Shown here: piece by piece, positions 1 through 31,907 of the stretch
How the letters are laid out: each line of letters begins with the position of its first letter
Numbering within the stretch: the stretch's first letter is position 1
Virus genome (UHGV): UHGV-0071249
DNA from: a virus
Strand: one strand, 5' to 3'
DNA: 34,343 nucleotides
Notes under the pieces: generated by a model
The model's database searches: none
Seen by the model: the letters and a program-made list of their open reading frames with translations, nothing else
Told to the model about the DNA's origin: nothing
Position numbers and translations under genes: made by a program

Positions 1-93
1 TTAACGGGCATTGGGTCCGCTTCCAGCACGGTTTTTGCATGATAATCATACAAATGTGTTATGCTTATACAAACAAAAACTAGAAGGTTGCCA

Positions 94-6509: not shown

Positions 6510-7195
6510 CTTTTATGGCTTTCGTATGTTGGCTCTCGAAATTTAAATATGTGATGTTTCTTACCCATCGAAATAAATTCCTGCGATACTGTTTTACGAC
6601 AAGAAAATACAGTAATAGGAACTGATAGAGAATAAATCACAGTGGAGAGTAATACTATGAGAGGGTAGTGAGAACTAATTAAAATAAGAGACGTAATGAA
6701 ACAAGCAAGCCATAGCATAATCATAAAAGCACTAAGGAATGTGTTTATATTAGAAACCGAGGGACGAAGGTCGTTTATGGTTTTATAGAAAAGCACTTTA
6801 TATAAATTCCCTGTAACATAATATTCTAATTTATCAATTACTAACTCCCAGTTTTCTTGCCAATATTTGCTACCGATATTCACATAATAGAAGCATATTG
6901 AAAATACGGTTCCAATTATTGATATGAATGGTGTATAGGTGATATATTCCGTATGTGTGAAAAGATAACCATAGGCAGCAGTTATAACTGTGAAAAAAGC
7001 AAAAAAATAAGTTGCTCGCTTCCAGTACAAATCAATCTCAAATTTTCTTATATCATGAGCTTTATCCAGTGCGGCTATTAGTTTTTTATGATCTAAAGAA
7101 TCTTCCATAATAATTGTACTGACACCCAAGAATTCTTGGAAAAATTCTTTATCCTCATCTTTTATTACAAATGGTTCTTTTTTTGTATTATCCAT
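6506..7195 (-). CDS. Integral membrane protein with about four TM helices (229 aa), function unknown; candidate immunity or defence effector
   Basis: Soluble N-terminal 60 aa, then hydrophobic helices (FFAFFTVITAAYGYLF; FISIIGTVFSICFYYV; FLSAFMIMLWLACFITSLILI; LIVLLSTVIYSLSVPITVF) with a YWQENWE linker; convergent with hcp. Confidence 0.6.
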   Translation of the reverse strand: MDNTKKEPFVIKDEDKEFFQEFLGVSTIIMEDSLDHKKLIAALDKAHDIRKFEIDLYWKRATYFFAFFTVITAAYGYLFTHTEYITYTPFISIIGTVFSICFYYVNIGSKYWQENWELVIDKLEYYVTGNLYKVLFYKTINDLRPSVSNINTFLSAFMIMLWLACFITSLILISSHYPLIVLLSTVIYSLSVPITVFSCRKTVSQEFISMGKKHHIFKFREPTYESHKS

Positions 7196-8164: not shown

Positions 8165-9286
8165 TCAACGCACCATGGCTAATGTTCTGGAAATTCGCAT
8201 GATTTCTTTTTCAATATCATCTAAAACAGGTAGTGATTTTCTGCTTCGTTCAGCAATTTCTTGCAATATATATCTGTTCAAATAATTGTTTACATTTTTA
8301 GGATCAAGATTTTCAGGTGTGGGAACAACACAACATTGCCAATAAAAAATCTCATCTTCGAAATGAGTTAGCCATTTGGAGTGATATCTTTCTTTCGATT
8401 TTTTCTTATTAAGCACATAAATGCTGGCTGCAGCTATCACATCAGCAATTTGTATACCATGCGTGACTTTAGAATCAGAAAGGATTATGGGCTCAGATAG
8501 TTTGAATGTGATCGGGATTTTTTTATTATTAAAGGTCTCGAACACAATTTCATCATTACCTATCATCTCATTGAATGCGTCTTGTTGGGTAATTAATGGT
8601 TTTGAACTATCACATATAGCTCTCAATGTACCAAACTTACTACTCATATCGCATAAGAGATTATAAAGAGAAGTCGTTGTCAAATCTAACAACCATTTAT
8701 CAACCCCAGTGCCCTCGAGACCTTCATATTCCTCTTCAATTATTGAAATGTTATGCTTGGCGAAATCATGAATGTCCATCATAATTTCAGAGTTTTTAGT
8801 ACCAATAACTGGTTCGATAAAACTATTAACTAATATTTTACCTCGTGAAAAATCTTCAAATCGAGAATGCAATAGTTCAGAATACTCATCCTTAGCTATT
8901 AAAGAAAAATACATTATATTGGATATGAATAGGTGGAATTTAAGGTTGTAAAATATTGAGCTTTTAGCTGCTAATACTGGCTCGAAAATATATTCAAAGA
9001 ATTTTCCTGAAAGGGCATATTTCTTTTCGTTAACAACCACACGCATACGTCCACGGAAATGATTAAGTATCTCATCTACGGCTGGTTGTAATCTCTTGCT
9101 ATTAACGAGAGTGCTACCTTTTAGCTCTTCGGCTGCGATCGAGTACTTTTGTATTATGTAATCTACAAACTGTTTACTTTCCTCTTCATCAGTCACGACT
9201 GCAGCGTAACTAAAAAAAGGCTGATCTTTTGAAAGTAAGTTATTACCTGTAAACCCTGATTCGTCGAAGTAGACATTTTTTACCAA
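8165..9286 (-). CDS. DUF3800-like protein (373 aa), antisense cargo gene immediately upstream of the late operon
   Basis: N-terminal VYFDESG and C-terminal GIQIADVIA motifs, which I recall as the two signature motifs of DUF3800; TTG start with GAAGGA ribosome-binding site about 9 nt upstream. Confidence 0.6.
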   Translation of the reverse strand: MVKNVYFDESGFTGNNLLSKDQPFFSYAAVVTDEEESKQFVDYIIQKYSIAAEELKGSTLVNSKRLQPAVDEILNHFRGRMRVVVNEKKYALSGKFFEYIFEPVLAAKSSIFYNLKFHLFISNIMYFSLIAKDEYSELLHSRFEDFSRGKILVNSFIEPVIGTKNSEIMMDIHDFAKHNISIIEEEYEGLEGTGVDKWLLDLTTTSLYNLLCDMSSKFGTLRAICDSSKPLITQQDAFNEMIGNDEIVFETFNNKKIPITFKLSEPIILSDSKVTHGIQIADVIAAASIYVLNKKKSKERYHSKWLTHFEDEIFYWQCCVVPTPENLDPKNVNNYLNRYILQEIAERSRKSLPVLDDIEKEIMRISRTLAMVR

Positions 9287-9495: not shown

Positions 9496-15901
<6,406 letters not shown>

Positions 15902-15906
15902 TATAT

Positions 15907-16200
15907 ATGAGAGGATTTAGTAAAGCTCAAAAAAGATCACTACTAGATTCTTTCGGTGAAGATCTCGTCATTGTTCAGGATGGAGTAACAAGTACTGTTA
16001 CAGTGATATTCGAGCAAGACGAGATTTTTTTTGAAGATGCAGAATCTACCGTGAACTATTTCACTTCTGAAACTGGTTTACCAGTGGGTATTACTTTTGA
16101 ACATAATGGCACTACCTACATAGTAAATAGAATAGATGATGATTTGAGTGGAATCTCAGATTATCACTATATTCAACAGATTAATTTAGAGGATATCTAA
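15907..16200 (+). CDS. Small head-tail joining or head completion protein (97 aa), by position
   Basis: Directly follows the capsid gene; no family recognised. Confidence 0.45.
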   Translation: MRGFSKAQKRSLLDSFGEDLVIVQDGVTSTVTVIFEQDEIFFEDAESTVNYFTSETGLPVGITFEHNGTTYIVNRIDDDLSGISDYHYIQQINLEDI

Positions 16201-16201
16201 T

Positions 16202-16639
16202 ATGTACACGGCAGACTATACAATCAGAAAGTACCTAACCAACAGATTAAGTACTAAAGCGAATCTTCATTTTCCATCGAAAGCATCAGTAGATAAAAAA
16301 GCTATGGTTTATATTGGGGAAAGTTCAGTAATGAGAAATAAGATTCCTCAAAATATGCCAGTAATCGCGGCACAAATAGTACCGCAAGAAGTACAAAACC
16401 TTTGTGAATTTCGTATTGATTTCGTATCAGTTGCCGAAGACTTTAAAAATGCCTCAGAAGAAATTGAAAAGATTCTAGAGGCAATTTTTGCTAAGGGATT
16501 CTTAGATGATTTAAACAAACTACTAAGGATGCCAATTTATAATGTACTAGTTGGTGATAGTTTAATGACAACTCAAGCCGAAGCACAAAAAACAATGTAT
16601 GTACATACGCAATCAATTACATTTAGCTACGGGGAATAA
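16202..16639 (+). CDS. Putative tail completion / terminator protein (145 aa), by position
   Basis: Between head genes and tail genes; no family recognised. Confidence 0.45.
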   Translation: MYTADYTIRKYLTNRLSTKANLHFPSKASVDKKAMVYIGESSVMRNKIPQNMPVIAAQIVPQEVQNLCEFRIDFVSVAEDFKNASEEIEKILEAIFAKGFLDDLNKLLRMPIYNVLVGDSLMTTQAEAQKTMYVHTQSITFSYGE

Positions 16640-16641
16640 TA

Positions 16642-18324
16642 ATGTCATTCTTAACTAACTACACAACAGTGTGGATTAATACTAACACACTTAATACCGA
16701 TCCAAATTCAAAAGCATTTGAACAAGTTGAAAAGCTGGCTTCATTTCCAGTAGTAGGTGCTACCACACAAGTTACTTCAATTGAACCATATAATTCTACA
16801 TTTATGGCTAAAGAAGTTGGTGATATGTCTCATAATGACGTAACGATCACCGTTAATTGGGTTCCATCCGTACACCAATTTCTAGATGATTTAGTATCTT
16901 CTGGTGAAGAAGTTCAGATGAAAATTGAAATGCCAGATGAAGGTGCAGATGATACTACCGTTCCATATGCAATGTATAACGGTGTTCTTACATCTACATC
17001 AACTGCTGGTAGTTATGATAATGTAGTAACTAAAACATATACCTTTGCACCAACTGCATTAGTAAGTGCTGGTATACTTGATGAAACTACAGTACCGCTA
17101 AACCGTGGTGATTATGGCGTTGGCTCTAATGGAACTACTTTCCCAAGCTGGCAAGAACGCGACGGTAACGGATTTATTAAGATTCCATCTACTACTTCAC
17201 CAACTGGTACTGATGTTCTAGGTATTAATAATCTTGATACAAACTTTGGTACTCAATTAGTAATTAGTAAAACTGGTACACCAATTATAAACGTCCGTAA
17301 CTACGGAACATCTATGGGTGCATGGTACAAAGTCTATACAAGTGCAGATAAACCAACACTAACAGAACTTGGTGCAGCCTCCAGTGCAAGCCTAGATAAC
17401 TATGTACTAAAAACACAGACAATAAACGGTAAACAGCTAACGGGGAATATTACCCTTGTAGCCGCAGATATCTCTGATGTGTACTCACAAACTTATATCA
17501 CTAATACATTTGTTCCAAAAGTATTTCAGTTAAATGGTCATGCACTATCTGGTACTTCATTAAACTTGGTTGCGGCAGATATTTTAGATGTGTACTCACA
17601 GACACAAACTAATACTAACTTTGTTGCAAAGACTCAGACGATTAACGGCGTGGCATTAAGTGGGAATATTACACTAGGTGCAGCACAACTAACCGATATG
17701 GCAAGTCTAAGCTATAGTAACAGTACTTTTGTACCTAAAACATTCTTAGTGAATAACAAGGCACTTACTGGTACTAACATTCAACTTGTAGCCGCAGATA
17801 TTTCAGATGTGTACTCACGTACCCAATCAAATGATCTATTTGCACTACGTATCACCCGTATTAATGGCTATGCCCTAAACAGTGATATTACTTTGAACTA
17901 TGATGATGTTGGAACATATTCAAAGAAACAAATTGATGATAAAGACAAGGTATTACAAGCCAATATTGATACAAAAGTAACAATTGTAGATGATCTATTA
18001 GCACTAAATACACTCACAGGCACTAGCCTAGAGATTGATTTATCAGATAGTAAGACTGCATTCACTGTTACACTATCAGCAGGAACAACTAATTTTACCA
18101 TTGTTAACGCAAGTGGTAATAGTAAGAATACTCAATCTTTCACTGTAGCTATGAAACAAGGCACAGGGGCAAATAAAATATCATGGCCTGATTCAATTTT
18201 ATGGTCTTATGGGCGTGTACCAGTACTGACATTTACGAAAGATTCAACAGATGTATTCCAGTTTGTTTCTTATGATGGTGGTAGTACGTGGTTCGGCTCC
18301 TTACTAATGGCAGATCTACACTAA
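16642..18324 (+). CDS. Tail protein with an N-terminal tail-tube-like domain and C-terminal phage tail-fibre repeats
   Basis: Residues about 20-140 align with the 156-aa tube protein at 21200-21670 (VEK[VL]A[AS]FP, TVNW[IV]P, TAG.[FY]D, YTF); then four copies of a roughly 38-aa repeat (TQTINGK.LTGNITLVAADISDVYSQT). Confidence 0.65.
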   Translation: MSFLTNYTTVWINTNTLNTDPNSKAFEQVEKLASFPVVGATTQVTSIEPYNSTFMAKEVGDMSHNDVTITVNWVPSVHQFLDDLVSSGEEVQMKIEMPDEGADDTTVPYAMYNGVLTSTSTAGSYDNVVTKTYTFAPTALVSAGILDETTVPLNRGDYGVGSNGTTFPSWQERDGNGFIKIPSTTSPTGTDVLGINNLDTNFGTQLVISKTGTPIINVRNYGTSMGAWYKVYTSADKPTLTELGAASSASLDNYVLKTQTINGKQLTGNITLVAADISDVYSQTYITNTFVPKVFQLNGHALSGTSLNLVAADILDVYSQTQTNTNFVAKTQTINGVALSGNITLGAAQLTDMASLSYSNSTFVPKTFLVNNKALTGTNIQLVAADISDVYSRTQSNDLFALRITRINGYALNSDITLNYDDVGTYSKKQIDDKDKVLQANIDTKVTIVDDLLALNTLTGTSLEIDLSDSKTAFTVTLSAGTTNFTIVNASGNSKNTQSFTVAMKQGTGANKISWPDSILWSYGRVPVLTFTKDSTDVFQFVSYDGGSTWFGSLLMADLH

Positions 18325-21146
18325 TGATTAGAAAACACAATTTAGATAACGCGTATCAAATGGTAGAGGGGCAATTTAAGTTCCTCGCCAGAAACACCGG
18401 ACTAACAACCGATAATAAAACTCAGCACTATGTTTTAAATCCAGATAATGTACTTGCAAACAATAGACACTTTATCGCACAAACTCAGTGGGAAGCACAA
18501 CCAGATGGTGATGCAACTACCGAAGGACAATCCCTACAAATACTAGGTGCTATTCACTGCTACCAAGCAACTAAAGAACCATACTATCTAGAGAAAGCAA
18601 AAGAATATTTTGATGCATATCATTTAGCATTCTATCGTGGTGTACCATTTCCAGATCCACCAAGTACGGCATTACGTTGTAATTGGATTTGTAATGGTAA
18701 GGCTCCAGTACTGGCAAACTACCCACTAGATCCCGAATATCCGACACATGGCGGCTTTAAAGGGGTGTTATTCAATTGGGTAAATGGACAAACTAAGATA
18801 CCTTCTGGTGCTCCAAACTATGGTGAGTACTTGGACGCTGTATGGTTCGCCTTTCCAGAACGTGCATCACTAGGTTGGAACCAAGTTAACGCAACTGCAT
18901 ATATGTGGTTAGAAGACGGTACAACTGATTGGAAGACCAAAGCACCAACTTATGATGTAGATTGGATTATCGACCGTACAGGCCGCAAGGTTGACAGTAA
19001 CGGTGATGTACTGGAACAGGGAATAACAAGCCAGATCGGTACAGTACAGCTTAAAGATACTTCTATTAATGGTAATTACCGTTTCAACTATGCAACACGT
19101 AACCCCGTAGAACATAGCGGTTATATGTTTAAACGTAATGAACGTTGGCACAACCGCCCGGTAAACGTACCAATTGATAATTACGGTAGTCTTGATTTCG
19201 CTGATAATGCATCAGATGCTGAATTGTGGTTCTGTCTTGCATCTAAAATGCTATGGGATATTACAGGGGAACGTAAACACTATCTAGCGTGGCAGTGTTC
19301 ACTACTTACTTGTTATGGTTATTCAGATATTGATAGATTTGATATGTTCTTCCGTAAGAGTACAATTGCAACAACGCCATTCACTGATGGTATTTCATAT
19401 GATTATTTCTACCCAAGTGATCGAATTGCAACTTATTCACGTGATGCCGAAGGTTATATTGTAATTAATCAAAGTGCATCAGCACAGACTACCCTAGAAC
19501 AACAATCAATTTGGTTTAAGTTTAATAATAACTCAAAATTCCATATTGAATGTGGCGGTGTTGATACTACTGGTGTAGCTCTAGGACTCGCTGTTAAAAT
19601 GACAGTGAATAAGACGAAAGTAGAAGAGGGTTCAACACTATACCGTTGCGGTATTCCAAATACTAACCCAAATGGTTCTATTACGGTAATGGATGTACCA
19701 ATGAATCACTTTACCCGTGTTAAACGTCCTGATGGTGGTGAATACCTAACCGCAGATATGCGTAATGTCTCTGATTATGGTTCTAATACTGTCACTAGGT
19801 TTGAGTATGTATCTGGAATAGCTGGTAAGTACTATGACAACGTAATCACCAGTACTATGGATGGTGACGGCGGGATGGTTGTAGGATTCTATATCTATGA
19901 CGATGAGAGACAAGATTTAAAATCATTCACCTATCGTACATATAATGATGACTTTAACTTACGTGTTACCGATCCAGATGGTTGGAGATGGTGGACTATG
20001 TTACCTGCTAGTGGTGGTGAATGGGTAACTAAAGATTTAACGCAGTTAGATTTTAAACTAAACAGTTATCAACCAAACCACGTAGAAGGCGATGAGCAGC
20101 CCGCAGCAGTGACATTAACACAACTAGAGGACTTTACCTTACTATTAGATGATGACCCGATAGACGGCGTTTCAGGGCGTATAGATTGGTACTGTATAAA
20201 CGATCTACCAGAACTATATAACGATGGCGGTACTGGTGACTATTCTGTACTAGTTAATTTAACATTCAATGACAGTACTGATAGTGGTTATACGGCACGT
20301 CTTGGTAACTGTACTATCAGAGACTATATGTTAGATAGCCTTGCATATACTCCCGGTCTAATACCGTTCAGTAACATTACAGATCCATATGCACAGTTAT
20401 ATTCTGGCTGGCGTGGTCTTCCGTATCCGGGCTACCAATTACCTACAGTATGGTGTTTTAAAGGAACTACTATTGATACAGTAAGACTAAATAATAGTAT
20501 CAAGTTCTTATGTGATTCACAGGACGGGTTTACTAATAAATTTCATCCTACTGTACCAGGTCCATGTGCTCAGGCGTTTGTATGGAACCGTCAGGACGCA
20601 TTAGCGTACTTACCAGCAGGTGAGAAAGTAGATACATTCATTATGGATCACTGGTATTCAGAGGCTTGGTCTGGTTATGAACCACGTGCATTCTATGCAG
20701 GATGTAACGTAGTATATGAATTATGGTCACGTGGTGATTATGCAATCCCCTCTAATATAATTCAGTACTGTAAAAACTGGATGAATTACTTGAAATGGTT
20801 TATGAAAAATAATGATGGTCATGCACCAACACGTTTCAAAAACAATGGTGAAGTAATTTATGATGGATTTACCCCTCATATGTCAGGACTATGGTTAGCA
20901 GGTGCTTGTTCTATGGCAATTGCTGGTTATCCAGATGATGAGTTAATACAAATGTTGTTTGATGAAGTACAAAGTTATTATGAGGTAATCACGTCAAATC
21001 ATGTAATGAATGGTACGTGGGCAGCCGCTATACGTTCTGGTACTCCAACTACGGCAGAAAACAATAGTATGTTCTTTGGCTTTTATAGCGGGGAAGTACT
21101 AAGAGGATTAGGACTATATATAGAGTACTACAATCTTCATAAATAA
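18324..21146 (+). CDS. Large tail-associated protein (940 aa), possibly an enzymatic (glycoside-hydrolase-like) tailspike or fibre
   Basis: TAATG-coupled ATG at 18324; N-terminal region (QSLQILGAIHCYQATKEPYYLEKAKEYFDAYHLAF) is reminiscent of alpha/alpha-toroid glycosidases; lies between the fibre-repeat gene and the tube gene. Confidence 0.5.
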   Translation: MIRKHNLDNAYQMVEGQFKFLARNTGLTTDNKTQHYVLNPDNVLANNRHFIAQTQWEAQPDGDATTEGQSLQILGAIHCYQATKEPYYLEKAKEYFDAYHLAFYRGVPFPDPPSTALRCNWICNGKAPVLANYPLDPEYPTHGGFKGVLFNWVNGQTKIPSGAPNYGEYLDAVWFAFPERASLGWNQVNATAYMWLEDGTTDWKTKAPTYDVDWIIDRTGRKVDSNGDVLEQGITSQIGTVQLKDTSINGNYRFNYATRNPVEHSGYMFKRNERWHNRPVNVPIDNYGSLDFADNASDAELWFCLASKMLWDITGERKHYLAWQCSLLTCYGYSDIDRFDMFFRKSTIATTPFTDGISYDYFYPSDRIATYSRDAEGYIVINQSASAQTTLEQQSIWFKFNNNSKFHIECGGVDTTGVALGLAVKMTVNKTKVEEGSTLYRCGIPNTNPNGSITVMDVPMNHFTRVKRPDGGEYLTADMRNVSDYGSNTVTRFEYVSGIAGKYYDNVITSTMDGDGGMVVGFYIYDDERQDLKSFTYRTYNDDFNLRVTDPDGWRWWTMLPASGGEWVTKDLTQLDFKLNSYQPNHVEGDEQPAAVTLTQLEDFTLLLDDDPIDGVSGRIDWYCINDLPELYNDGGTGDYSVLVNLTFNDSTDSGYTARLGNCTIRDYMLDSLAYTPGLIPFSNITDPYAQLYSGWRGLPYPGYQLPTVWCFKGTTIDTVRLNNSIKFLCDSQDGFTNKFHPTVPGPCAQAFVWNRQDALAYLPAGEKVDTFIMDHWYSEAWSGYEPRAFYAGCNVVYELWSRGDYAIPSNIIQYCKNWMNYLKWFMKNNDGHAPTRFKNNGEVIYDGFTPHMSGLWLAGACSMAIAGYPDDELIQMLFDEVQSYYEVITSNHVMNGTWAAAIRSGTPTTAENNSMFFGFYSGEVLRGLGLYIEYYNLHK

Positions 21147-21156
21147 GATGAATGAA

Positions 21157-21177
21157 GGGTAACAAGATCTGTTACCC
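21157..21177 (+). promoter_or_regulatory. Stem-loop (GGGTAACA-AGATC-TGTTACCC) upstream of the major tail tube gene
   Basis: 8-bp perfect stem read from the sequence; no T-run, so more likely an mRNA processing or stability element than a terminator. Confidence 0.3.
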
Positions 21178-21199
21178 ACTTTAAATAGGAAAAAAAGAA

Positions 21200-21670
21200 A
21201 TGGCATTTAAAAATATGTTTATGGCTAACAATGTCAAAGTTGAGATTGCTTTAGCTCCTGTTAGTGGTGTTGCAACAACCTTTACTGTAGTTGAGAAGGT
21301 AGCAGCTTTCCCTGCCGTCGCGGGGGCAGAAACCAATATGGCTACTGTGAATAGTTTCGGTGAACTTTATGCAGAGAAACTACCTGGTTCTAAAAACGTT
21401 CCTGATATTTCTCTAACTGTCAACTGGATTCCTGGTGCAGTTGGTCAAGAACTACTTAACACTTATGCAGATAACCTAACCAAAGTACAACTACGTGTAA
21501 CTTACTATGAGAACCTTACTGGTACTGATGGTGCTTCTTACTTCCAAGTTGTTAACGGTTATATCTCTACTAACACTACTGCTGGTGATTTTGATTCACA
21601 AGCACAACGTGAATATACATTTGTAGTTACTGGTGCTCCAGTTGCAAGCGGTGAAACTGCTGGTGACTAA
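21200..21670 (+). CDS. Major tail tube protein
   Basis: 156 aa, immediately upstream of the chaperone pair and tape measure gene; paralogous to the N-terminus of the 16642-18324 protein. Confidence 0.7.
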   Translation: MAFKNMFMANNVKVEIALAPVSGVATTFTVVEKVAAFPAVAGAETNMATVNSFGELYAEKLPGSKNVPDISLTVNWIPGAVGQELLNTYADNLTKVQLRVTYYENLTGTDGASYFQVVNGYISTNTTAGDFDSQAQREYTFVVTGAPVASGETAGD

Positions 21671-21707
21671 ATAATATCAATAAAACCATAATTCAAGGAA
21701 GATACAA

Positions 21708-21998
21708 ATGAACCTAAATGATTTAATGAGCGTGATTGGAGTAAAAACCCACGAATTTGAACTAGCACCAAATGTAGTTGTGAAAATTCGTATGCCTTCA
21801 CTAGCTCAATATTCCCAATGTACTACACCATTCAAAATTATCTATCATTGTGTAGTTGATGACGAAGGTAAACCACTATTCGAATCACCAGAACAGATTG
21901 AAGAAAACGTAGAATTATCAGTACAGATGAAACTAAGCCAAGAGATTGATCGTATCTTCTCTGAATCAATAAATATTGATAATATTGAAAAAAAGTAA
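21708..21998 (+). CDS. Tail assembly chaperone (lambda G-like)
   Basis: 96 aa, between tube and tape measure; ends in the slippery heptamer A_AAA_AAG. Confidence 0.65.
   Translation: MNLNDLMSVIGVKTHEFELAPNVVVKIRMPSLAQYSQCTTPFKIIYHCVVDDEGKPLFESPEQIEENVELSVQMKLSQEIDRIFSESINIDNIEKK
21989..21995 (+). promoter_or_regulatory. Programmed -1 ribosomal frameshift site (A_AAA_AAG) giving a G-T-like chaperone fusion
   Basis: Heptamer is in the correct register of the zero frame; the -1 frame is open from 21995 and runs in-frame into the 22055-22384 ORF. Confidence 0.6.
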
Positions 21999-22054
21999 GA
22001 AGCGATCCGTTTCTTGCACTAACTCTAAAACTAATCCGTAATAAGGGGTGTGGT

Positions 22055-22384
22055 GTGGATGAACTCTACACCATGCCCCTTTTGCTTTTCTTTTATATAT
22101 ACGTCTATGACACAGTTATAGACCCAAACTCAGCACAAGTAGATCAAATGCGTCATTGTGAAATCATGCAAGCTCTATGGTTGAGTACTGGAAATATCAG
22201 AAAAGAAGATATGCACAAGTTCAGTACTAAAGAATTCGATTCACTAGGATTGCTTAGTAATAAAACTCGTGCAGAACAGGCAGAAGAAAGAGCAGAGAAG
22301 GAGAAGCAGATCGCAGAAGAACAAGCAAAACAACAGCGTGCAAACATGCTCGCATGGATGGGAGTAAAGCCAAATGGCAAATAA
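22055..22384 (+). CDS. T-like extension of the tail assembly chaperone, probably expressed mainly as the -1 frameshift fusion from 21708
   Basis: Same frame as the -1 frame of the upstream chaperone gene; GTG at 22055 with AAGGGG could also allow independent initiation. Confidence 0.55.
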   Translation: MDELYTMPLLLFFYIYVYDTVIDPNSAQVDQMRHCEIMQALWLSTGNIRKEDMHKFSTKEFDSLGLLSNKTRAEQAEERAEKEKQIAEEQAKQQRANMLAWMGVKPNGK

Positions 22385-24833
22385 AAAACAATCAATGATT
22401 TTTGAAATCACAGGTAATGAATCTGGCTTGAAGCAATCATTGAAAAATGCGGGTAATAGTTTATCCGAATTCAATAATAAAGCTGGTGGTGCATTTGGTA
22501 ACGTAGATGAGTTACTAACATCTACTGGTGCAGCTTTCGGTACTTTTGCAGGTGGTGTAGGTATTGCGGCAACCGCAGCAATGGTAGCTATCAGTAAGAT
22601 GCAAGTACAAGCAGAAAAGGCATTTGAAGTATTCCAATCTGCGAGCCTTGCACAAACTGGTATAGAGAACTTACAGAAGCAAGCTAATATGTTTGCCGAA
22701 GTAGGTTTAACTATGGATAACGTAGCAGACCAAATTAAGGATAGTAAGGATAAGTTGGGCGATGCCTTAACTAACCAAGCTGGTTCTATGTATACTGATG
22801 TTATTCAGCCTCTTAAGTTGAATATCATAGAACTACAGAAAGCCGCTGATGGTGGTGAAGATATTATTGCAAAGATTTACTATCAAGCTAAACAAATGGG
22901 CTTTAGTCAATCCCAGATCATTAACATGTTAGAAACTGTAGCAAACGATGCAGATAAACGTATGACTATCTACCAACGTTTCAACAGTGAACAGGAATAT
23001 CAAAATCAACTAGCAAGTGAAAGCGTACAACTAACTGGTGAACAGTCTAGCCAGTTCCAAGCATACCGCAAATCTACACAAGAACTAAGTAAGGCGTGGG
23101 AGGCTTGGAATAATTCTGCTTTAGCACCAGTAGCGGCTAACCTTGCAGATATTCTAAACCTAATGACCAAGATCCTTAATAGTAAGCCAGTAGCAGCCGC
23201 AGCAGCAGCTACAAGCCGTGAAGGTATCGCAGCAGTACAGGAATACCAGAAAGGTTATCAGCAAGATATTCTTAAGAACTCTTCTATCTATGGTGCTCAA
23301 TTAGTTGAAGAACAGCAAAAGGACGCGGCACGTAACCAGAAAACTTTTGATAATATGTTAGCAAATCTTGATAAGGCTAATAACCTTATTCAGAAACAAC
23401 GTGAAGAGTACAATAAAGGATTCGAAAAAAGTACTATCAATGCTGCAATGAAGCCTTTCCAAACTGCTAAACAAGAAACACAATCTAAAATTGATGCTCT
23501 TGATAAACAGTATAAAGATACTCGTGCGGCAATCCAGCAATCATTACTAAAAGGATATCAAGGTAATCAAGATGCATTGAATAAAGACTTAGCTACACTT
23601 GATGCTGGTTATAAAGAAACACGTGCAGACCTCGTTAAGAAACTAACTGAAAGTGCAGATAAAGCCGCAGCCTCAGCAGCTACAAAAGCCGCAGCAGCAG
23701 CTAAGAAAGCCGAAGCCGAAGAAAAGCAACGTCTTGCCAAACAAGTACAAGCTCAGAAAGTACTAGATCAGACTATGGCAGCAATGGGTGCTAATGCCGC
23801 TCAGGTGAAGTTACAACAATTCAATCTTCAACAAAATGAAATTGAAAAACGTATTAAGGAATCAGCAGCACTAACTAAAAAGAGTGAAGATGAAACTAAT
23901 GCAATGTTGAATACTCACTATGCAGACCGTGCACGTAATTACAAAGAGATGGTTGATCAGATGTTGGCAGAGAATGACCGTTTGAAACAAGCTCAGAACA
24001 TCGCAGCCATCGCAAATGATCCAAATGCCACACCAGAACAAAAGGCAGCAGCCGCAGCCGCTGGTAACAAGTGGGCTACTAATACTGCTACTCAGGGATT
24101 AGGTTATCAAGACCCATTCAATACACAGGCAGACCCAACTAAGTTAGCCGCTATTGGTACAGAACAGCAGAACAACAAGGACGGGGCAAAGGCTCTTTAT
24201 GATGCAAAAGTAATTGGTTTCCAAGAATATCAAGATCAGCTTACAGCTATTCAGACTAATGCAGATATTAAACGTGCTCGTGCTACTGCTGATGCATTAA
24301 ACGGTACTATTGGCCTTTGGGGTAATGCCGCTGGTGATATTGGTACTACTCTAGCTGGTGCTTTTGGTCAGGGCAATGACGCCGCGAAAGCGTTTTTTGC
24401 AGTACAGAAAGGTATTGCTATTGCTCAGTCAATTATCAATATCCAACAGGGTATTAGTGAGGCAACCAAATTAGGCTGGCCTGCTGGTATTGCCGCTGGA
24501 TTAAAGGTAGCAGCAGAGGGTGCAAAAATTATCAGTACTATCAAAGGTACTAATATTCAAGGTCAAGCCCATGATGGTTGGGATTCATTACCAAGTACTG
24601 GTACATATAATCTTGAAAAGGGTGAACGTGTTGTAGGTAAATCACTAAACCAAGATCTTACTAACTATCTAAAAGATGGTGGTAATAAATTATCTGGTGA
24701 AATCAAGATTGAAGCACCATTAGTAATTCAATCAAATGGTGATATTACTGATAAGGACTTCACTGAAATGTGTAAAAAACATGCTGATGTTCTAGTACAG
24801 GCAGTACGCCAATCACAACAACGCAACGTCTAA
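22374..24833 (+). CDS. Tape measure protein
   Basis: 819 aa, Ala/Gln/Lys-rich coiled-coil with hydrophobic glycine-rich segments; directly downstream of the chaperone pair. Confidence 0.85.
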   Translation: MANKKQSMIFEITGNESGLKQSLKNAGNSLSEFNNKAGGAFGNVDELLTSTGAAFGTFAGGVGIAATAAMVAISKMQVQAEKAFEVFQSASLAQTGIENLQKQANMFAEVGLTMDNVADQIKDSKDKLGDALTNQAGSMYTDVIQPLKLNIIELQKAADGGEDIIAKIYYQAKQMGFSQSQIINMLETVANDADKRMTIYQRFNSEQEYQNQLASESVQLTGEQSSQFQAYRKSTQELSKAWEAWNNSALAPVAANLADILNLMTKILNSKPVAAAAAATSREGIAAVQEYQKGYQQDILKNSSIYGAQLVEEQQKDAARNQKTFDNMLANLDKANNLIQKQREEYNKGFEKSTINAAMKPFQTAKQETQSKIDALDKQYKDTRAAIQQSLLKGYQGNQDALNKDLATLDAGYKETRADLVKKLTESADKAAASAATKAAAAAKKAEAEEKQRLAKQVQAQKVLDQTMAAMGANAAQVKLQQFNLQQNEIEKRIKESAALTKKSEDETNAMLNTHYADRARNYKEMVDQMLAENDRLKQAQNIAAIANDPNATPEQKAAAAAAGNKWATNTATQGLGYQDPFNTQADPTKLAAIGTEQQNNKDGAKALYDAKVIGFQEYQDQLTAIQTNADIKRARATADALNGTIGLWGNAAGDIGTTLAGAFGQGNDAAKAFFAVQKGIAIAQSIINIQQGISEATKLGWPAGIAAGLKVAAEGAKIISTIKGTNIQGQAHDGWDSLPSTGTYNLEKGERVVGKSLNQDLTNYLKDGGNKLSGEIKIEAPLVIQSNGDITDKDFTEMCKKHADVLVQAVRQSQQRNV

Positions 24834-24844
24834 TAAATACCATA

Positions 24845-24866
24845 AAGCCCACGATCATGTGGGCTT
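24845..24866 (+). terminator. Hairpin (AAGCCCAC-GATCAT-GTGGGCTT) after the tape measure gene
   Basis: 8-bp perfect stem followed by ATTT; overlaps the GTG used by the ORF track for the next gene, which supports the ATG at 24886 as the real start. Confidence 0.4.
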
Positions 24867-24885
24867 ATTTGAAAGGATTAGAATA

Positions 24886-25440
24886 ATGTTAAATAACGCA
24901 ACAATAAGTGACTTTGTACTAAGTGATAATGTACCACTATTTCAACAAAAAACATGGACGGGTGAACAAATTACACGCGTAGTAGGTACTGAATACTTTA
25001 GTATCTCTTTTAAAGTCACGATGAACAAACAATATAGAGCAGAACTATCAAACTTTTACGCACAGTACGCACAAGGTAAACCATTTGATATGTCTCTTGG
25101 TTGGTGGGGTAAGTATACGGGTAATCAAACTGCTAACGTACAGGCAACCGCAGCACGTGCAGCAGGGGCTACATCTATTGCCGTAAACTCAAATAGACTT
25201 GAAGTCGGTTCACTAATTCAGTTCAACGGACATAAGAAGCTATACCGTATTATTGCAAATAGCGGTACTACTATGACTATTTTCCCCGGACTAATTAAGA
25301 ATATCCAATTAGGTGAAGTAATCAAATACGATAACCTTTCTGGTTCTTTCGTACTAACTACACAAAATTCACAGTTTTCATTCCCAAGTAATAACCTAAT
25401 CGGAGTAACAATTCAGGCAACAGAAAATATCAGAGGTTAA
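24886..25440 (+). CDS. Minor tail protein (distal tail / gpM-position)
   Basis: 184 aa from ATG 24886 (AAAGGA ribosome-binding site); first gene after tape measure. Confidence 0.5.
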   Translation: MLNNATISDFVLSDNVPLFQQKTWTGEQITRVVGTEYFSISFKVTMNKQYRAELSNFYAQYAQGKPFDMSLGWWGKYTGNQTANVQATAARAAGATSIAVNSNRLEVGSLIQFNGHKKLYRIIANSGTTMTIFPGLIKNIQLGEVIKYDNLSGSFVLTTQNSQFSFPSNNLIGVTIQATENIRG

Positions 25441-25441
25441 T

Positions 25442-26086
25442 ATGGCTATTCCAAATAATGTATTAAACAATGCTGTACTGGTTAACTACTGGAATCTAGT
25501 ACGCGGCGATAACAAAACAGTACTCACAGAGAAAGAACTCTATCAGTGTGGTGTAATGGTTAAAATGGTTGATTTGATTCCCCCTACTGGTTCTGCCTTA
25601 TATCTTGTAGATGGACTAGCAGAAAAAACAGTAGGTGGTATTACCTATCAACCAGTACCGGATTTTATTGATTCAAGTTTTGCTAACTATGTAGAAAAGA
25701 ATCAGGTAAACAATAACGGTACTACATTTAAAGTCAGTAACGTAAACCAAGAATATATTTCTATGGCCTTACGTGGACTATGGAAAGATGCAAAAGTGAA
25801 TATCTGGATGGGTATCGTTAGTCCTGATGATGGTTCTATACTTTATCGCTATCGTATCTTTAGTGGTTATATTGATTACTTTTCCTCAGACTTTAACAAT
25901 GAGGATGGAAACACTGAAAGTACTACAACCGTAAACTTAAACAGTCTATGGAAAAAGTTAGACCAAACACAACGCCTACTATCCAGTACATCTATTCACC
26001 AATCCACACATAAGGGTGATAAGTTCTTTGACCTAATTGGCATCATAAATAGTTCAGAACAATTCTGGAAAGCGAGTAAGAGATAA
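25442..26086 (+). CDS. Minor tail protein (gpL-like by position)
   Basis: 214 aa; segment GITYQPVPDF loosely resembles the lambda gpL QYQPYPIQ region as I recall it. Confidence 0.5.
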   Translation: MAIPNNVLNNAVLVNYWNLVRGDNKTVLTEKELYQCGVMVKMVDLIPPTGSALYLVDGLAEKTVGGITYQPVPDFIDSSFANYVEKNQVNNNGTTFKVSNVNQEYISMALRGLWKDAKVNIWMGIVSPDDGSILYRYRIFSGYIDYFSSDFNNEDGNTESTTTVNLNSLWKKLDQTQRLLSSTSIHQSTHKGDKFFDLIGIINSSEQFWKASKR

Positions 26087-26087
26087 A

Positions 26088-26483
26088 ATGAATAAAGGTT
26101 TAATTACCGAGTACCTAAGCACATACGCAAATAAACCTATCGAATATGGCACAGTGGATTGCCATATAATGGCATTATCCGTAATTGATATGATTAAGGG
26201 TACTCAATATAAAGATGAGATTTACCAGAAATATAAATCGGCATCAGGTGGACGCAAGTACGCCAAAGATAACTGTACATATCCAACACTAAAGAAACTA
26301 TGTGAAGAATTGGGTGAATTAGTAGAGACACCACGTGATGGTGATATTCTTCTGGCTAATAATCAATGTACTGTATTCTGGAGAGATAAAGTAATAGTAC
26401 TGAATAATGAAAAGGTATTCAAAGTTCAACGCTATTCCCAAGAAGATAATAACTATAAGATTTACCGATTCACGGAGGAATAA
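26088..26483 (+). CDS. Minor tail / tail assembly protein (gpK-position)
   Basis: 131 aa immediately upstream of the J-like gene; contains YGTVDCHIMALSV. Confidence 0.45.
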   Translation: MNKGLITEYLSTYANKPIEYGTVDCHIMALSVIDMIKGTQYKDEIYQKYKSASGGRKYAKDNCTYPTLKKLCEELGELVETPRDGDILLANNQCTVFWRDKVIVLNNEKVFKVQRYSQEDNNYKIYRFTEE

Positions 26484-26486
26484 AAC

Positions 26487-29400
26487 ATGGCAGTAGCAGC
26501 ATTAGCAGCAGCAGTAATTGCAGGTGCATCGGCGGCAGCCGCAAGTGTAGCGGCAGTAGGTTTAGTTGCAGCAATCGCAATTGGTGCAGCAGTAACAGCA
26601 CTATCCTATATTACATCTAGTCAAATGATGAATGTAGGCCAACAGGGGGTAAACTATCCAAGTACTGGTACAAGTAATGCCAGAAGTACATCACCTAGTA
26701 CTGGTATTCCTATTGTATACGGTGGCTCTAACAAGAATAAAGATGAAGTTGCTTTTGTAAAAGTAGGTTCTATTGTAGTTTGGCAAAACGTATTCAAAGG
26801 TGAATCTAACCAGTTATGTACTGTACATTGTCTAAGTATTGGTGAGATTGGGCAAGTACCAGGAGAAACAAAAGCAGGTGTGATCCAACAGCTATTTTTC
26901 GACAACGTACCAGTACTACGTGATGATGTATATATTACTCAGGAAGGTATTATCCCTAAATCAATGATGATTGAGAAGTTCAGAAACTTCCTTGATATCG
27001 AAGTACGCTTCGGAAAACCTTCATATGGTGGTTCAATGACGTTAGCCCGTCAATATTGCGGTAGTAAATGGACTGATGATATGCGTGGTGATGGTCTAGT
27101 ACAGGTCTGTACTGTCATTAGGAAAACTAACGGTAGCCTTACTGATGGTATTCTAACTAATATGAACTACGTACTATCAGCAGAGATTAGAGGCAGAAAG
27201 ATTTATGATCTAACTGATAACGTACTAAAACCTTCAAGTAATCCACCAAGCCAGCTTTATGACTTCATGACAAATACAGAATTTGGTTTTGGTACAGATC
27301 CAAATGATATTGATATTTCCTCATTCCGTAATATTGCACAGTACTGTAAAGATAACCATTATTATTCAAATGGTAGTATTGCATATGATAAAAGTTATAA
27401 AGAGAACATGGAAGCAATTCTACAAACTTTTGGTGGTGTTCTATATGAATCAAATGGTGTTCAGTACTTAAGTGTTGATACGGCAGATTTACCAGTTGAA
27501 CACTTTGATGAAAGTAATATTATTGGTTCGGTTAATATCACTACTGGTTCCAATACGGATTACTTCAATTGCATGGACTCAACTTATACGAACCCAAATG
27601 GGGATTATGCAGAAGATATTATCCGTTATCCAAGTAATGCATTAACTAATGAAACAATTATTCGTGATGGTTATATTATCAAGAAAGATTTAAACTGTAA
27701 GTGGATTCAGGATAAAGACCAATTAGCCAAACGTAGTAATATCGAACTATTAAAAGCTAAGTATGTACTTGCAGGTATTACATTTAATACATTCGTAACT
27801 GATATTACAGTAAATGATGTATTCACGATCAGCTTTAAAGAAGCAGGTTTTGAAAATGTTAAGTTCCGTGTAGTTTCCCGTACTGTACCAATGACAGTAG
27901 ATAAAGCAGGGATAGTACAGATCACAGGTATACAGTACTCCGACGGTATCTATTCGGGCGTTGACCCAGGACAGTTCCCACAGAATGGTATTACTAACTT
28001 ACCTAACCCTTCTCGTGTAGAGCCACCAAGCAACTTACAGGTACAACGCCTTGGTACAACCGTAAATGGCAGTACTGTATTAATGACTTGGGATCTTAGT
28101 CAAGATACTGGTGTTCGTGGTTATAAACTACGTTATAAGAGAAGTGATTCCAGTACTTGGATTAATATTGGTAACGTTGGACAGTACAGTACTAGTTTTG
28201 AAATCTTGAACTTGATTCAGGGTGTAAACTATGACTTTGGGATTGAAAGCTACAATACCTTGGGTTATTCATCCGAACTAGTAGCAATTTATAACCAGAT
28301 GCCACAAATCATTTTTGCATTACCAAAGGTAACTGGTCTTACATTGGTGAATAGTGATGCTGGATTTAACCAGACGTATTCTGAGGCATTCATATTTGAT
28401 TGGGATGATCAGAGTAACGTACCAGTAAATGGAAAACGTTTTACTGACTTCTTCAAATATTATGAAATTCGTGTTTACGATAGATATCGTAATTACATTA
28501 AATCGTACTACACACAGGATAGTGCATGGTCTTATACGTTCGCAATGAACCAATCAGACGGTCTAAGCCGTCACCGTGTTATTGGTATTATTGCACATGG
28601 GTATGGTCAGGGCATCTACTCAGAAGAGGTACAGATTGAAGTTAGTAACCCACAGCACCCACAATTGCTAGGTGTTAAATTACGTAATGGTTATGATCAG
28701 GTTTTCTTTGAATGGACTGAAAGTAATATCCCAGATTATGCGGGGGTAGTATTCCAAGCCGCAAAAGATGAGGCTTTTAGTTCGGGTGTGGTCTACTTTA
28801 GTAGTTCTAATCGTTATACGGCATCATTCCCGATTGAAGATGGTTCTTGGTTCGGTCGATTGGCTGCATATGATGTAATGGGGCAAGATGAATTAGTATG
28901 GTCGCCTACAATTGGTTTTAACCAAAATACTAAGGTTCCATATTCTAAGTTGAATGACGATGTAATTGATGGATTATTAAACAGTGAAACAGCTACGGGT
29001 ATTGTTGAGAAACAGATCGTAGATGAATTAGGTTCACGCTGGCAGGTTCAGGTATCAAATAATGGTAACGTTACTGGTATTGCCCTAGCAGCAGATGAAA
29101 AATCATCAGTGTTTACCGTAATGGCAGATCGTTTTAGTATTATTAGTACTGACTCAGCTAAACAAAGTGATAAGGTATATCCGTTTGTAGTTCAGGGGGG
29201 TAAAACTTATATTAACTCAGCAGTCATTGCCACGGCTAGTATTAAAGAAGCAATGATAAATGACCTTTCCGTATCGCGAGCTAAGATACAATCAGCCGCA
29301 ATAGATAATACTAAGATCGCCAATGCCGCTATCCGTAATGTTCACATAATGGACGGCGTTATAGACTCTGCGAAGATCTCCCAGCAGATACAGTCTACTA

Positions 29401-30017
29401 ATTGGGATGGTACTAATGGTTGGGCTATCAATAAGAATGGCAATGCATGGTTTGGTAACGTATCTATACGCGGTAATATTCAGGCAACGTCTGGAGTTCT
29501 AAATAATGTTACAATCAATGAAAACTGTGATATCAAAGGTACTCTAAGTGCAGCACGTATCGTAGGTGATATTTGTCGTCCTCAATCAACGGGAATAACC
29601 GAGAATCTTTTCATATTTGGTTCACGTACTGTTTCAGGTGGTCTTACTGCATTAGATCCAGTACCAAACCAACACTATGTAGCCTTACGTATTCGTGGTG
29701 AAGATTTTGATCGTATTCTTGATAGTAATATGACAATCTGGCTAAGGGCATTACAACGTCAGTTCTTCTATATTCGTATGGGTGGTGATGGTATTCCAAT
29801 GACTAACTTGGTATATGTTGATGCTGGTAATAATGGTCACAATACACCATATACATTCCCACTAAATGGAATTTATATCCCTGCCGTTGGTCGCGGTCGC
29901 TGGAACTATATCTATGTGATGTGTACTACTGACCGTAGCTGTACTGCTCAGCTTAATGTACCAGAACAACTATCTTCATTTGTATATCGTGCAGGTGATC
30001 AGCCTTTATATAATTAA
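26487..30017 (+). CDS. Central tail fibre / host specificity protein (lambda gpJ-like)
   Basis: 1176 aa; C-terminal SGVLNNVTINENCDIKGTLSAARIVGDI closely parallels lambda J SGTLSNVTIAENCTINGTLRAEKIVGDI; the Ala-rich hydrophobic N-terminal 45 aa resembles the C-terminal region of lambda gpI as I recall it. Confidence 0.85.
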   Translation: MAVAALAAAVIAGASAAAASVAAVGLVAAIAIGAAVTALSYITSSQMMNVGQQGVNYPSTGTSNARSTSPSTGIPIVYGGSNKNKDEVAFVKVGSIVVWQNVFKGESNQLCTVHCLSIGEIGQVPGETKAGVIQQLFFDNVPVLRDDVYITQEGIIPKSMMIEKFRNFLDIEVRFGKPSYGGSMTLARQYCGSKWTDDMRGDGLVQVCTVIRKTNGSLTDGILTNMNYVLSAEIRGRKIYDLTDNVLKPSSNPPSQLYDFMTNTEFGFGTDPNDIDISSFRNIAQYCKDNHYYSNGSIAYDKSYKENMEAILQTFGGVLYESNGVQYLSVDTADLPVEHFDESNIIGSVNITTGSNTDYFNCMDSTYTNPNGDYAEDIIRYPSNALTNETIIRDGYIIKKDLNCKWIQDKDQLAKRSNIELLKAKYVLAGITFNTFVTDITVNDVFTISFKEAGFENVKFRVVSRTVPMTVDKAGIVQITGIQYSDGIYSGVDPGQFPQNGITNLPNPSRVEPPSNLQVQRLGTTVNGSTVLMTWDLSQDTGVRGYKLRYKRSDSSTWINIGNVGQYSTSFEILNLIQGVNYDFGIESYNTLGYSSELVAIYNQMPQIIFALPKVTGLTLVNSDAGFNQTYSEAFIFDWDDQSNVPVNGKRFTDFFKYYEIRVYDRYRNYIKSYYTQDSAWSYTFAMNQSDGLSRHRVIGIIAHGYGQGIYSEEVQIEVSNPQHPQLLGVKLRNGYDQVFFEWTESNIPDYAGVVFQAAKDEAFSSGVVYFSSSNRYTASFPIEDGSWFGRLAAYDVMGQDELVWSPTIGFNQNTKVPYSKLNDDVIDGLLNSETATGIVEKQIVDELGSRWQVQVSNNGNVTGIALAADEKSSVFTVMADRFSIISTDSAKQSDKVYPFVVQGGKTYINSAVIATASIKEAMINDLSVSRAKIQSAAIDNTKIANAAIRNVHIMDGVIDSAKISQQIQSTNWDGTNGWAINKNGNAWFGNVSIRGNIQATSGVLNNVTINENCDIKGTLSAARIVGDICRPQSTGITENLFIFGSRTVSGGLTALDPVPNQHYVALRIRGEDFDRILDSNMTIWLRALQRQFFYIRMGGDGIPMTNLVYVDAGNNGHNTPYTFPLNGIYIPAVGRGRWNYIYVMCTTDRSCTAQLNVPEQLSSFVYRAGDQPLYN

Positions 30018-30091
30018 TAATATAAATAGATTGGGTAGTATTAATAACTTTAGTACTACCTACATTATATTTTAATTTAAAGGGACTGAAA

Positions 30092-30373
30092 ATGGGTTTT
30101 GATGTATTATTTTCATTACTATTTTCTGCGGGTGCACTTTTCTGGACTATATATCGTGATAAGTCAGAAGATACTAATGATTTAATTGATAGAGTTTCTA
30201 TTCTTGAATCAACTGTATCTGGTCATACTACGGATATTGCAAGAATAGAGTCAAACCATGATGATCTAGAAGGTACTACTAGAAAGATTCAAGACCAAAT
30301 ACACCAATTGGATTTGAAGATCGAACGTATTATTGTGATTCTGGAACAGCAGGAAAAAGAAAAGGGGCGATAA
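30092..30373 (+). CDS. Small membrane protein with one N-terminal TM helix and a coiled-coil tail (holin or spanin candidate)
   Basis: MGFDVLFSLLFSAGALFWTIY then charged helical region; AAAGGG ribosome-binding site; convergent with the lysozyme gene. Confidence 0.5.
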   Translation: MGFDVLFSLLFSAGALFWTIYRDKSEDTNDLIDRVSILESTVSGHTTDIARIESNHDDLEGTTRKIQDQIHQLDLKIERIIVILEQQEKEKGR

Positions 30374-30385
30374 TGCTCCTTTTTA

Positions 30386-30853
30386 TTACTTCCAGTTTAA
30401 TTGATTATTCATATCATCTACACGTGATTTTGTCTGCTTATACCATAGTGAATCTATAGATTCCCTACGCATACCAATGCGATCACCATTCTTTGCAGCC
30501 GCAAGTAATTTTTTGAATTTACTTGTACCCGCCAATCCCAATTGAAATATCATAATAATAAGATAATCTTCAATGTCTTTTGGAAGTGTACCTAGATTAA
30601 GTGTACGTAGTCCTGCTTTTGCCTTTTCGATATCATGAGCTAATAGTATATCTGCCTCAATTGGTGTAATCCCATTACTGAAATCTTCACCTTTCTGTAC
30701 TAGGTGTCCTGCCCCAACAGTGAGATAGCCCAAGCTATCTTTATATGGGTAATATTTCCCTTGTCGATAATAACCTTTATATGTTTGGTATAGTTGATCG
30801 CCTTCATATTTCCAAAGGCGTGTTTTAATGTCTGCCATTACTAAATACTCCAT
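30386..30853 (-). CDS. Endolysin, T4-type lysozyme (glycoside hydrolase family 24)
   Basis: Motifs YEGD...YKDSLGYLTVGAGHL, IMIFQLGLAGTSKFKKLLAAAKNGD and WYKQTKSRVDDM parallel the T4 lysozyme catalytic and C-terminal regions. Confidence 0.8.
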   Translation of the reverse strand: MEYLVMADIKTRLWKYEGDQLYQTYKGYYRQGKYYPYKDSLGYLTVGAGHLVQKGEDFSNGITPIEADILLAHDIEKAKAGLRTLNLGTLPKDIEDYLIIMIFQLGLAGTSKFKKLLAAAKNGDRIGMRRESIDSLWYKQTKSRVDDMNNQLNWK

Positions 30854-30855
30854 AA

Positions 30856-31308
<453 letters not shown>

Positions 31309-31905: not shown

Positions 31906-31907
31906 TA

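Follow-up and report, generated by a model that had tools for sequence, protein, structure and literature searches.

A predicted glycosidase-like head on a putatively tube-anchored adaptor: a probable two-gene host-recognition cassette in an Escherichia coli prophage

The stretch of DNA analysed here (hereafter, the window) is the virus genome UHGV-0071249, 34,343 nucleotides long, which represents a siphovirus-type prophage of Escherichia coli. Our subject is one of its tail genes, encoding a 940-amino-acid (aa) protein related to gp141 of phage phi92. In our view, this protein probably forms the distal head of a cassette of two genes that serves host recognition, occurs in all three tailed-phage morphotypes and would be anchored on the tail tube in the window. 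In the scenario that we propose, a gp140-like domain at the end of the protein encoded directly upstream, probably trimeric behind a coiled-coil helix, would dock the head, and the N-terminal part of the same upstream protein would fix the assembly to the particle. The anchor in the window would be a tail-tube paralogue followed by five fibre repeats, and the non-contractile tail might include a tube-like ring, or a few of them, bearing side fibres tipped with the 940-aa head. Gene order weakly suggests that such a ring might sit near the head-proximal end of the tail. Through a putative pocket at one end of its barrel, presumably lined by E67, D298, D758, E924, R788, W302 and W782, the 940-aa protein may bind, and perhaps cleave, a conserved envelope glycan, for which the core region of lipopolysaccharide (LPS) is our best current guess. 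In this way, it would provide a reversible primary adsorption and orient the particle, ahead of receptor engagement by the J-type central fibre; it would be accessory for infection and not required for assembly.

The 940-aa protein, its family and its predicted fold

A preliminary description, made from the letters of the window, had placed an open reading frame (ORF) for a 940-aa protein on the plus strand between a fibre-repeat gene and a tail-tube gene; its coordinates (Table 1) and its neighbours, with five repeats upstream and a phrog_158 protein downstream, were confirmed. The ATG of the gene overlaps the TAA of the upstream ORF (TAATG). Relatives at 78–92% identity occur in Enterobacter, Klebsiella and Cronobacter, and the ratio of nonsynonymous to synonymous substitution rates (dN/dS) against them was 0.08–0.10, with no domain reaching 0.2 (L002, a related prophage of E. 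coli, was left out because indels misalign it). The gene is therefore real and kept by purifying selection. E. coli proteins with 100% (rounded) identity to its product carry the label 'hypothetical protein'.

By significant full-length homology, the 940-aa protein is a member of PHROG 2871: a search of PHROGs matched residues 4–938 to phrog_2871 'tail protein' with E = 0 and 1222 bits. Using tblastn, we found matches in 531 cultured-phage records, the best of which, gp141 orthologues of the phi92 type in Justusliebigvirus, were 55% identical at 100% query coverage. When 1.84 billion representative proteins were searched with a profile, 385 clusters of the family (50% identity) came out. Its carriers span cultured myo-, sipho- and podophages, and include phAPEC8-like, Seunavirus and rV5-like phages (30% identity in the latter), the jumbo phages G17, Goslar, PCH45 and SPFM22, 52-kb myoviruses (SE4, S144), P2-like prophages, Grimontviridae podoviruses, T7-like podophages, Erwinia phages and Vibrio phages. 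Identity over the full length was 40–55% in phages of Escherichia, Salmonella, Yersinia, Pseudomonas and Cronobacter; it was ~38–39% in Erwinia phages and ~31–32% in Vibrio phages. Searches of Pfam and NCBIfam gave no match for the protein, and PHROG 2871 has no Pfam model. Sequence and profile searches of the PDB retrieved no solved structure of a member, only a 27-residue echo of glycoside hydrolase (GH) family GH76 with E = 0.12, and a structure search of BFVD retrieved uncharacterised relatives only.

According to an AlphaFold2 (AF2) model with a predicted local distance difference test score (pLDDT) of 88.9 and a predicted template-modelling score (pTM) of 0.83, the fold is a six-hairpin (alpha/alpha)6 barrel of the glycoside-hydrolase type, split by two beta-sandwich inserts. 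An alpha/alpha toroid had already been suspected from the sequence and confined to the N-terminal region; the toroid stands, while the layout has to be redrawn, as the second half of the barrel is C-terminal. The same description had read the C-terminus as a carbohydrate-binding domain rich in Trp, Tyr, Asn and Gly. That reading fails on the model: residues 719–940 are helical and form this second barrel half, and the four residue types make up 26.6% of them versus 24.7% of the whole protein, which is barely an enrichment. Resemblance to carbohydrate-binding modules (CBMs) maps instead to the internal beta inserts (~106–294 and ~336–718), where local Foldseek matches to CBM11, CBM22 and an agarase CBM reached a probability of 1.0. 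Residues 401–530 and 561–660 of the second insert form the most variable part of the family, having the highest column entropy. In Stenotrophomonas phage Philippe (P0060/P0061, 1083 aa), the variable beta-sandwich (query ~444–585) is duplicated in tandem within the head protein. The trimeric right-handed parallel beta-helix of tailspike depolymerases is not what the 940-aa protein forms in the model. Weak sequence echoes of GH76, GH127 and a C5-epimerase were seen, those of GH76 and GH127 being sub-threshold and confined to a few homologues.

Conservation was computed over 138 full-length PHROG 2871 members, down to 19% identity. At least 93% conserved were N46, E67, Q69, N124, D298, R373, D550, Y704, Q705, Q733, D758, R788, E924 and several Trp residues, including W302 and W782. 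Four of them, E67, D298, R788 and E924, are found where the predicted helices 66–83, 297–314, 785–803 and 921–938, respectively, begin, either right at the N-terminus or slightly within it. Since such helix ends converge on the active site in (alpha/alpha)6 six-hairpin enzymes, their placement in the model points to a functional pocket.

A recurrent adaptor with exchangeable anchors

The upstream 560-aa protein was described preliminarily as a fibre-repeat protein. It does have five repeats of ~37 aa (undetectable at the DNA level), but it also has an N-terminal tail-tube domain and a C-terminal gp140-like domain. Its N-terminus matched Pfam Phage_TTP_12 (PF16461) with 26.7 bits versus a cut-off of 26.1 and phrog_158 with E = 1.8e-16, and is 30% identical to the downstream 156-aa tube protein (E = 6e-14); family hidden Markov models (HMMs) and paralogy thus agree on tail-tube membership, and PF16461 is annotated (precomputed) on homologues of the 560-aa protein as well. 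A long helix predicted at residues 428–454 precedes the gp140-like domain, and the C-terminal ~110 aa are 45% identical to the Paula/phi92 gp140 orthologue (E = 2e-30); in phi92, the gp140 gene immediately precedes gp141. Prophages of Enterobacter, Klebsiella, Cronobacter, Pantoea and E. coli commonly carry such tube–fibre–adaptor fusions (560–563 aa), which were absent from the cultured-phage collection.

The partnership is not peculiar to the window, where the head gene lies directly downstream of a gp140-type domain. In 76 of the 77 fetched loci with upstream sequence (window included), the ORF directly upstream of the head gene ends in a gp140-like domain, and among cultured phages this domain is carried by 516 records and the head by 531. 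Together with the 45% identity to gp140, these figures strongly suggest that the head is attached through its neighbouring protein, as the preliminary description had supposed. The gp140-like HMM also matches the adaptors of ISAO8, A24, Bas52, L058 and L081. What precedes the gp140-like domain differs from phage to phage: the anchor is the T7 gp17 N-terminal domain (Phage_T7_tail-N) in the Yersinia podophage ISAO8, the TSP1/Gp66 N-domain (Tail_spike_N) in the rV5-like Bas52, and a tail-tube domain in the window. Distant members show direct fusions of the head: P0243 joins it to a major tail protein that has an Ig domain, P0200 to a lambda gpM-like domain and P0230 to collar-fibre segments.

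The cassette is found at several sites as well. It lies within baseplate modules in phi92, rV5 and P2-like genomes; in 52-kb myoviruses, its neighbours on either side are the tail terminator and sheath genes, and in T7-like phages it takes the gp17 position; in the window, it follows the head–tail connector genes and precedes the major tube gene. The preliminary description called the 940-aa gene unusually placed, which is true in comparison with lambda-like tails; yet different phages have the cassette inserted at many positions, and in the prophage lineage of the window its position is conserved, a tube gene of the 156-aa type always lying directly 3' of the head gene. From conserved adjacency and domain shuffling, we infer an anchor–adaptor–head design as the most economical reading of these sequences, in which the gp140-like domain would dock the head, while its site on the particle would be set by the remainder of the upstream protein.

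Two further arrangements were observed among the collected chains. P0173 (293 aa) was the sole chain found with both domains, having the first ~190 residues of the head and then a gp140-like domain; either recombination or an error in sequence assembly could explain it. Long members (L079:7953-12791; P0074–P0109) consist of a gp141-like module, then repeats like those of the upstream protein in the window, and then a Gly_rich_2 (PF21722) tip, i.e., the same building blocks as in the window cassette in the opposite order.

Function of the head and the alternatives

Published findings on relatives bear on the function of the head. In the T7-like phages phiR8-01 (g043/g044), ISAO8 and Atoyac, the pair occupies the gp17 position and is the only fibre. 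For phiR8-01, the LPS inner core is reported as the receptor (in a review table), and the phage infects only Yersinia enterocolitica strains negative for O-antigen and outer core (PMC6950378). The 'glycosidase superfamily protein' of Atoyac is 76% identical to the head of ISAO8. Atoyac podophages infect up to six gammaproteobacterial genera, and their fibre and glycosidase ORFs are among the most variable genes and candidate host-range determinants (PMC7857530). In the rV5-like Bas54, the homologue bas54_0026 had transposon insertions at 94 of 189 sites and was listed as dispensable on K-12, and the gp140-like bas54_0025 was scored essential (10.1101/2025.11.20.689424). Taken together with conservation of the head across hosts with unrelated capsules and O-antigens, the phiR8-01 receptor and the Atoyac and Bas54 data favour recognition of a conserved envelope glycan by the head, which may also process it, with the LPS core as the best lead. 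The 'deacetylase' fibre of the BASEL phages was considered as a possible PHROG 2871 member and rejected, as it is a different gene, bas52_0033.

A different target had been proposed in the preliminary description, namely that the protein may be a depolymerase of capsule or O-antigen. A serotype-specific enzyme of this kind would break down a polysaccharide that varies on the surface of its particular host, and the plaques would have halos. The GH-like (alpha/alpha)6 fold with CBM-like domains, the virion fibre context and the variability of beta-sandwich 401–530 would all suit it, and phi92-type phages bear several glycan-degrading fibres (PMC8594841). However, full-length identity stays at 30–55% across phages of many genera whose capsules and O-antigens are unrelated, whereas serotype-specific depolymerases are swapped rapidly. 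Moreover, we saw no diversifying selection in any domain, the protein is not a beta-helix trimeric tailspike, and phiR8-01, which has this pair as its only fibre, is restricted to strains lacking O-antigen and outer core. We thus regard a serotype-specific depolymerase as improbable, and less likely than a head directed to a conserved glycan. Even further from what we expect is a non-virion enzyme of lysogenic conversion (a moron) that alters the envelope glycans of the lysogen itself: although the gene lacks a Pfam annotation, sits in a prophage and looks enzyme-like, it belongs to the late tail operon, with translational coupling, has a fibre adaptor as its partner and is homologous to tail-module genes of strictly lytic phages, and no signal peptide was evident in its product on inspection by eye. 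This operon context makes the moron reading very unlikely, and it supports a place for the protein in the virion tail.

Two other explanations stay closer to the one that we prefer. The head might be a non-catalytic, lectin-like adhesin whose barrel pocket binds a sugar and cleaves no bond; the 940-aa protein bears no GH signature, and many six-hairpin proteins are not hydrolases, so we treat this as a real, if lesser, possibility. Somewhat less plausible, in our opinion, is a mainly structural hub that connects or branches the parts of a fibre or baseplate appendage (e.g., the fibre I arm of phi92, or its fibre II) and whose enzyme-like fold would be a relic. The continuation of long members into fibre repeats and a Gly_rich_2 tip speaks for a hub, as do the location of the gene inside baseplate modules, followed by fibre genes, in phi92, rV5 and P2-like genomes, the very high conservation, the merely 'Intermediate' score of bas54_0026 and the fact that some components of phi92 fibres I and II are unassigned (PMC13450770). 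On the other hand, no fibre gene follows the head in the window or in T7-like podophages, which makes the head terminal there; the conserved polar residues of the pocket are hard to account for by scaffolding alone, and the Bas54 homologue tolerates insertions.

Several points weigh against the tube-anchored, glycan-directed head that we favour. Its docking on the gp140-like domain is deduced from gene adjacency only, and among 264 family proteins we found no gp140-like domain fused directly before the head. Members of 1400–1630 aa extend as a fibre from the C-terminus of the module, which therefore can be a proximal connector and not a tip. The AF2 model of the 560-aa protein is poor (pLDDT 42), the tail-tube domain being its only moderately confident part, and no Pfam or CAZy-type family membership reaches threshold for the 940-aa protein. 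The idea of an LPS-core target is extrapolated from a podophage protein of ~40% identity, with a receptor assignment taken from a review table. In Bas54, bas54_0026 is 'Intermediate' and not fully non-essential, and this homologue is only ~30% identical (10.1101/2025.11.20.689424). A 2026 cryo-EM study of phi92 did not locate gp141 (PMC13450770), and we found no biochemical or structural experiment on any PHROG 2871 member. Bearing these points in mind, we still hold the host-recognition head to be the most probable of the explanations considered.

Prophage setting and likeness to known systems

Besides the cassette, the genes recognised in the window include those for a serine integrase, terminase, portal, capsid–protease fusion, tape-measure protein, distal tail protein and J-like tip fibre (coordinates of the features discussed are collected in Table 1). 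At the left end of the window lies the large serine recombinase, and at the right end a HAD-family host gene of the ybhA type; the related prophage in E. coli (L002; ESBLEC_MG48) adjoins a ybhA pseudogene and pgl. A megablast search with window positions 12000–32000 found no match among cultured phages, and only four complete E. coli genomes carry a relative, at ~75% identity. The 156-aa protein encoded downstream of the head is presumed to be the major tube subunit. Between these two genes lies a hairpin (dG −11.6 kcal/mol, z −2.7), which the terminator scan does not call; promoter and terminator scans as a whole performed at chance level. Between the tail-chaperone ORFs, where a frameshift of the G/GT type is expected, there is a second hairpin, very strong and with a T-rich tail after it, which is either terminator-like or frameshift-stimulating.

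Table 1. Positions of the cassette, its domains and other features in the window
Feature	Position	Strand	Remarks
560-aa anchor/adaptor protein	16642-18324	+	tube domain, fibre repeats, gp140-like domain
Tail-tube (TTP) domain, aa 1-145 of the 560-aa protein	16642-17076	+	PF16461 and phrog_158
Five ~37-aa fibre repeats, aa ~254-436 of the 560-aa protein	17401-17949	+	phrog_23008 'tail fiber protein'
gp140-like domain, aa 450-560 of the 560-aa protein	17989-18321	+	putative docking platform for the 940-aa protein
940-aa phi92-gp141-like tail protein (PHROG 2871)	18324-21146	+	predicted glycosidase-like head of side fibre
Barrel part 1, aa 1-105	18324-18638	+	helices 2-23, 66-83, 86-103; conserved N46, E67, Q69
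Insert 1, aa 106-294	18639-19205	+	beta-rich by DSSP on the model; well conserved (W121, N124)
Barrel part 2, aa 295-335	19206-19328	+	helices 297-314, 317-333; conserved D298, W302 at helix N-terminus
Insert 2, aa 336-718	19329-20477	+	all-beta; CBM-like beta-sandwich domains
Barrel part 3, aa 719-940	20478-21143	+	six helices; conserved Q733, W754, D758, W782, R788, H852, E924
8-bp GC-rich hairpin	21157-21177	+	GGGTAACA-AGATC-TGTTACCC; between head and tube genes; without T-tract
156-aa tail-tube protein	21200-21670	+	phrog_158, E 6.5e-16; canonical place upstream of chaperone and tape-measure genes
Tail-chaperone ORF	21708-21998		
17-bp hairpin with T-rich tail	22043-22081	+	
Tail-chaperone ORF	22055-22384		
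Large serine recombinase	61-1914	+	left end
161-aa Hcp-family protein	5999-6484	+	PF05638, E 2e-31
8xMP octameric membrane protein family gene	6506-7195	-	PF24838
DUF3800 gene	8165-9286	-	phrog_12991
659-aa protease-capsid fusion	13922-15901	+	Pfam Peptidase_S78 and Phage_capsid
Lysozyme-like gene	30386-30853	-	directly after J-like gene
SegE-type GIY-YIG endonuclease	30880-31308	+	PF19835
HAD-family ybhA-like host gene	33286-34287	-	right end

Some other genes of the window deserve a comment. The 659-aa fusion joins an N-terminal S78 prohead protease to the major capsid protein. The 161-aa protein of the Hcp family of type VI secretion systems is a further tube-fold protein in the same prophage, and its gene, in the early/accessory region, is distant from those of the tail. 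On the minus strand between the early genes and the terminase, the PF24838 and DUF3800 genes may be accessory or defence-type cargo; at a comparable place, the related prophage L002 has an 'ATP-dependent nuclease'. The SegE-type endonuclease gene, next after the lysozyme-like gene, is a homing-endonuclease-like insertion in the late region.

The 940-aa protein is a member of a known, annotated family, so that its identity is unsurprising and it does not constitute a categorically new system. Three things appear to be undescribed: the pairing of a constant gp140-like adaptor with the head across podo-, sipho- and myoviruses; the occurrence of this adaptor as a fusion with a paralogue of the tail-tube protein in a lineage of enterobacterial prophages; and the split-barrel domain map of the PHROG 2871 head. 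More than 500 sequenced phages carry the family, including therapy candidates (phi92-, rV5- and PVP-SE1-like phages, jumbo phages and T7-like podophages). A constant adaptor, anchors swapped among the tails of podo-, sipho- and myoviruses, and the role of sole fibre in an LPS-core-dependent podophage together yield a model that is concrete enough to be tested and that covers a sizeable part of the tail 'dark matter', and they offer a candidate portable module for host-range engineering. For the window itself, the domain map is corrected, and the expected target moves from capsule or O-antigen to a conserved envelope glycan. It is tempting to go further and suppose that the gp140-like adaptor and gp141-like head form a universal plug-in receptor-binding cassette of Gram-negative phages, that the head founds a new glycoside-hydrolase family acting on the LPS core, that a tube-paralogue ring bears enzymatic side fibres, and that the cassette may be the unassigned fibre density of phi92; we offer this wider picture only as a tentative one. 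To our knowledge, a tube-paralogue ring bearing enzymatic side fibres has not been described in siphovirus tails.

Among known systems, the closest is the gp141/gp140 pair of phi92, also present in Justusliebigvirus, phAPEC8-like, Seunavirus and rV5-like phages, with the same head (55% identity, 100% coverage), the same partner domain (45%) and overlapping stop and start codons; in phi92-like phages, gp141 is annotated as 'tail fiber with glycosidase activity or carbohydrate-binding module'. In phi92, however, the pair belongs to the baseplate module of a contractile tail and gp140 is a free protein of 157 aa, whereas in the window the gp140-like domain is the C-terminus of a tube paralogue in a siphovirus-type prophage. 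The T7-like podophages phiR8-01, ISAO8, Atoyac and Kaonashi have the same cassette, with an adaptor ending in a gp140-like domain and then a head of ~930 aa (~40% identity to the 940-aa protein), and differ in that the T7 gp17 N-terminal domain serves as anchor and the pair is the only fibre.

As for the fold, GH8 (CPF_2247, CelA, BcsZ-like, PssZ), GH105/GH88 and GH76 proteins are 7–13% identical to the 940-aa protein, which matches no family HMM at threshold; in contrast to GH8, GH105 and GH76, its barrel is split by two large beta inserts. The beta-helix tailspikes, such as P22 TSP, the endosialidase gp143 and colanidase gp150 of phi92 and Klebsiella capsule depolymerases, display, as is proposed for the 940-aa protein, a glycan-directed module on the virion through a small adaptor or anchor. 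Unlike these depolymerases, the 940-aa protein has no parallel beta-helix or beta-propeller, and it is conserved across hosts and not serotype-specific. Finally, tube proteins with C-terminal decorations are known from lambda gpV, with its Ig-like domain, and from SPP1 gp17.1*, and the neck-passage structures (NPS) and collar whiskers of lactococcal phages are comparable: in these, as is proposed for the window, a tube-domain protein has an outward, glycan-directed extension, and, as with the NPS, the gene lies between the connector and major tube genes. No sequence homology to NPS proteins was seen. The window differs from all of these in having a repeat fibre of ~400 aa and an adaptor that would recruit a separate 940-aa protein, and in using a separate tube paralogue in place of frameshifting.

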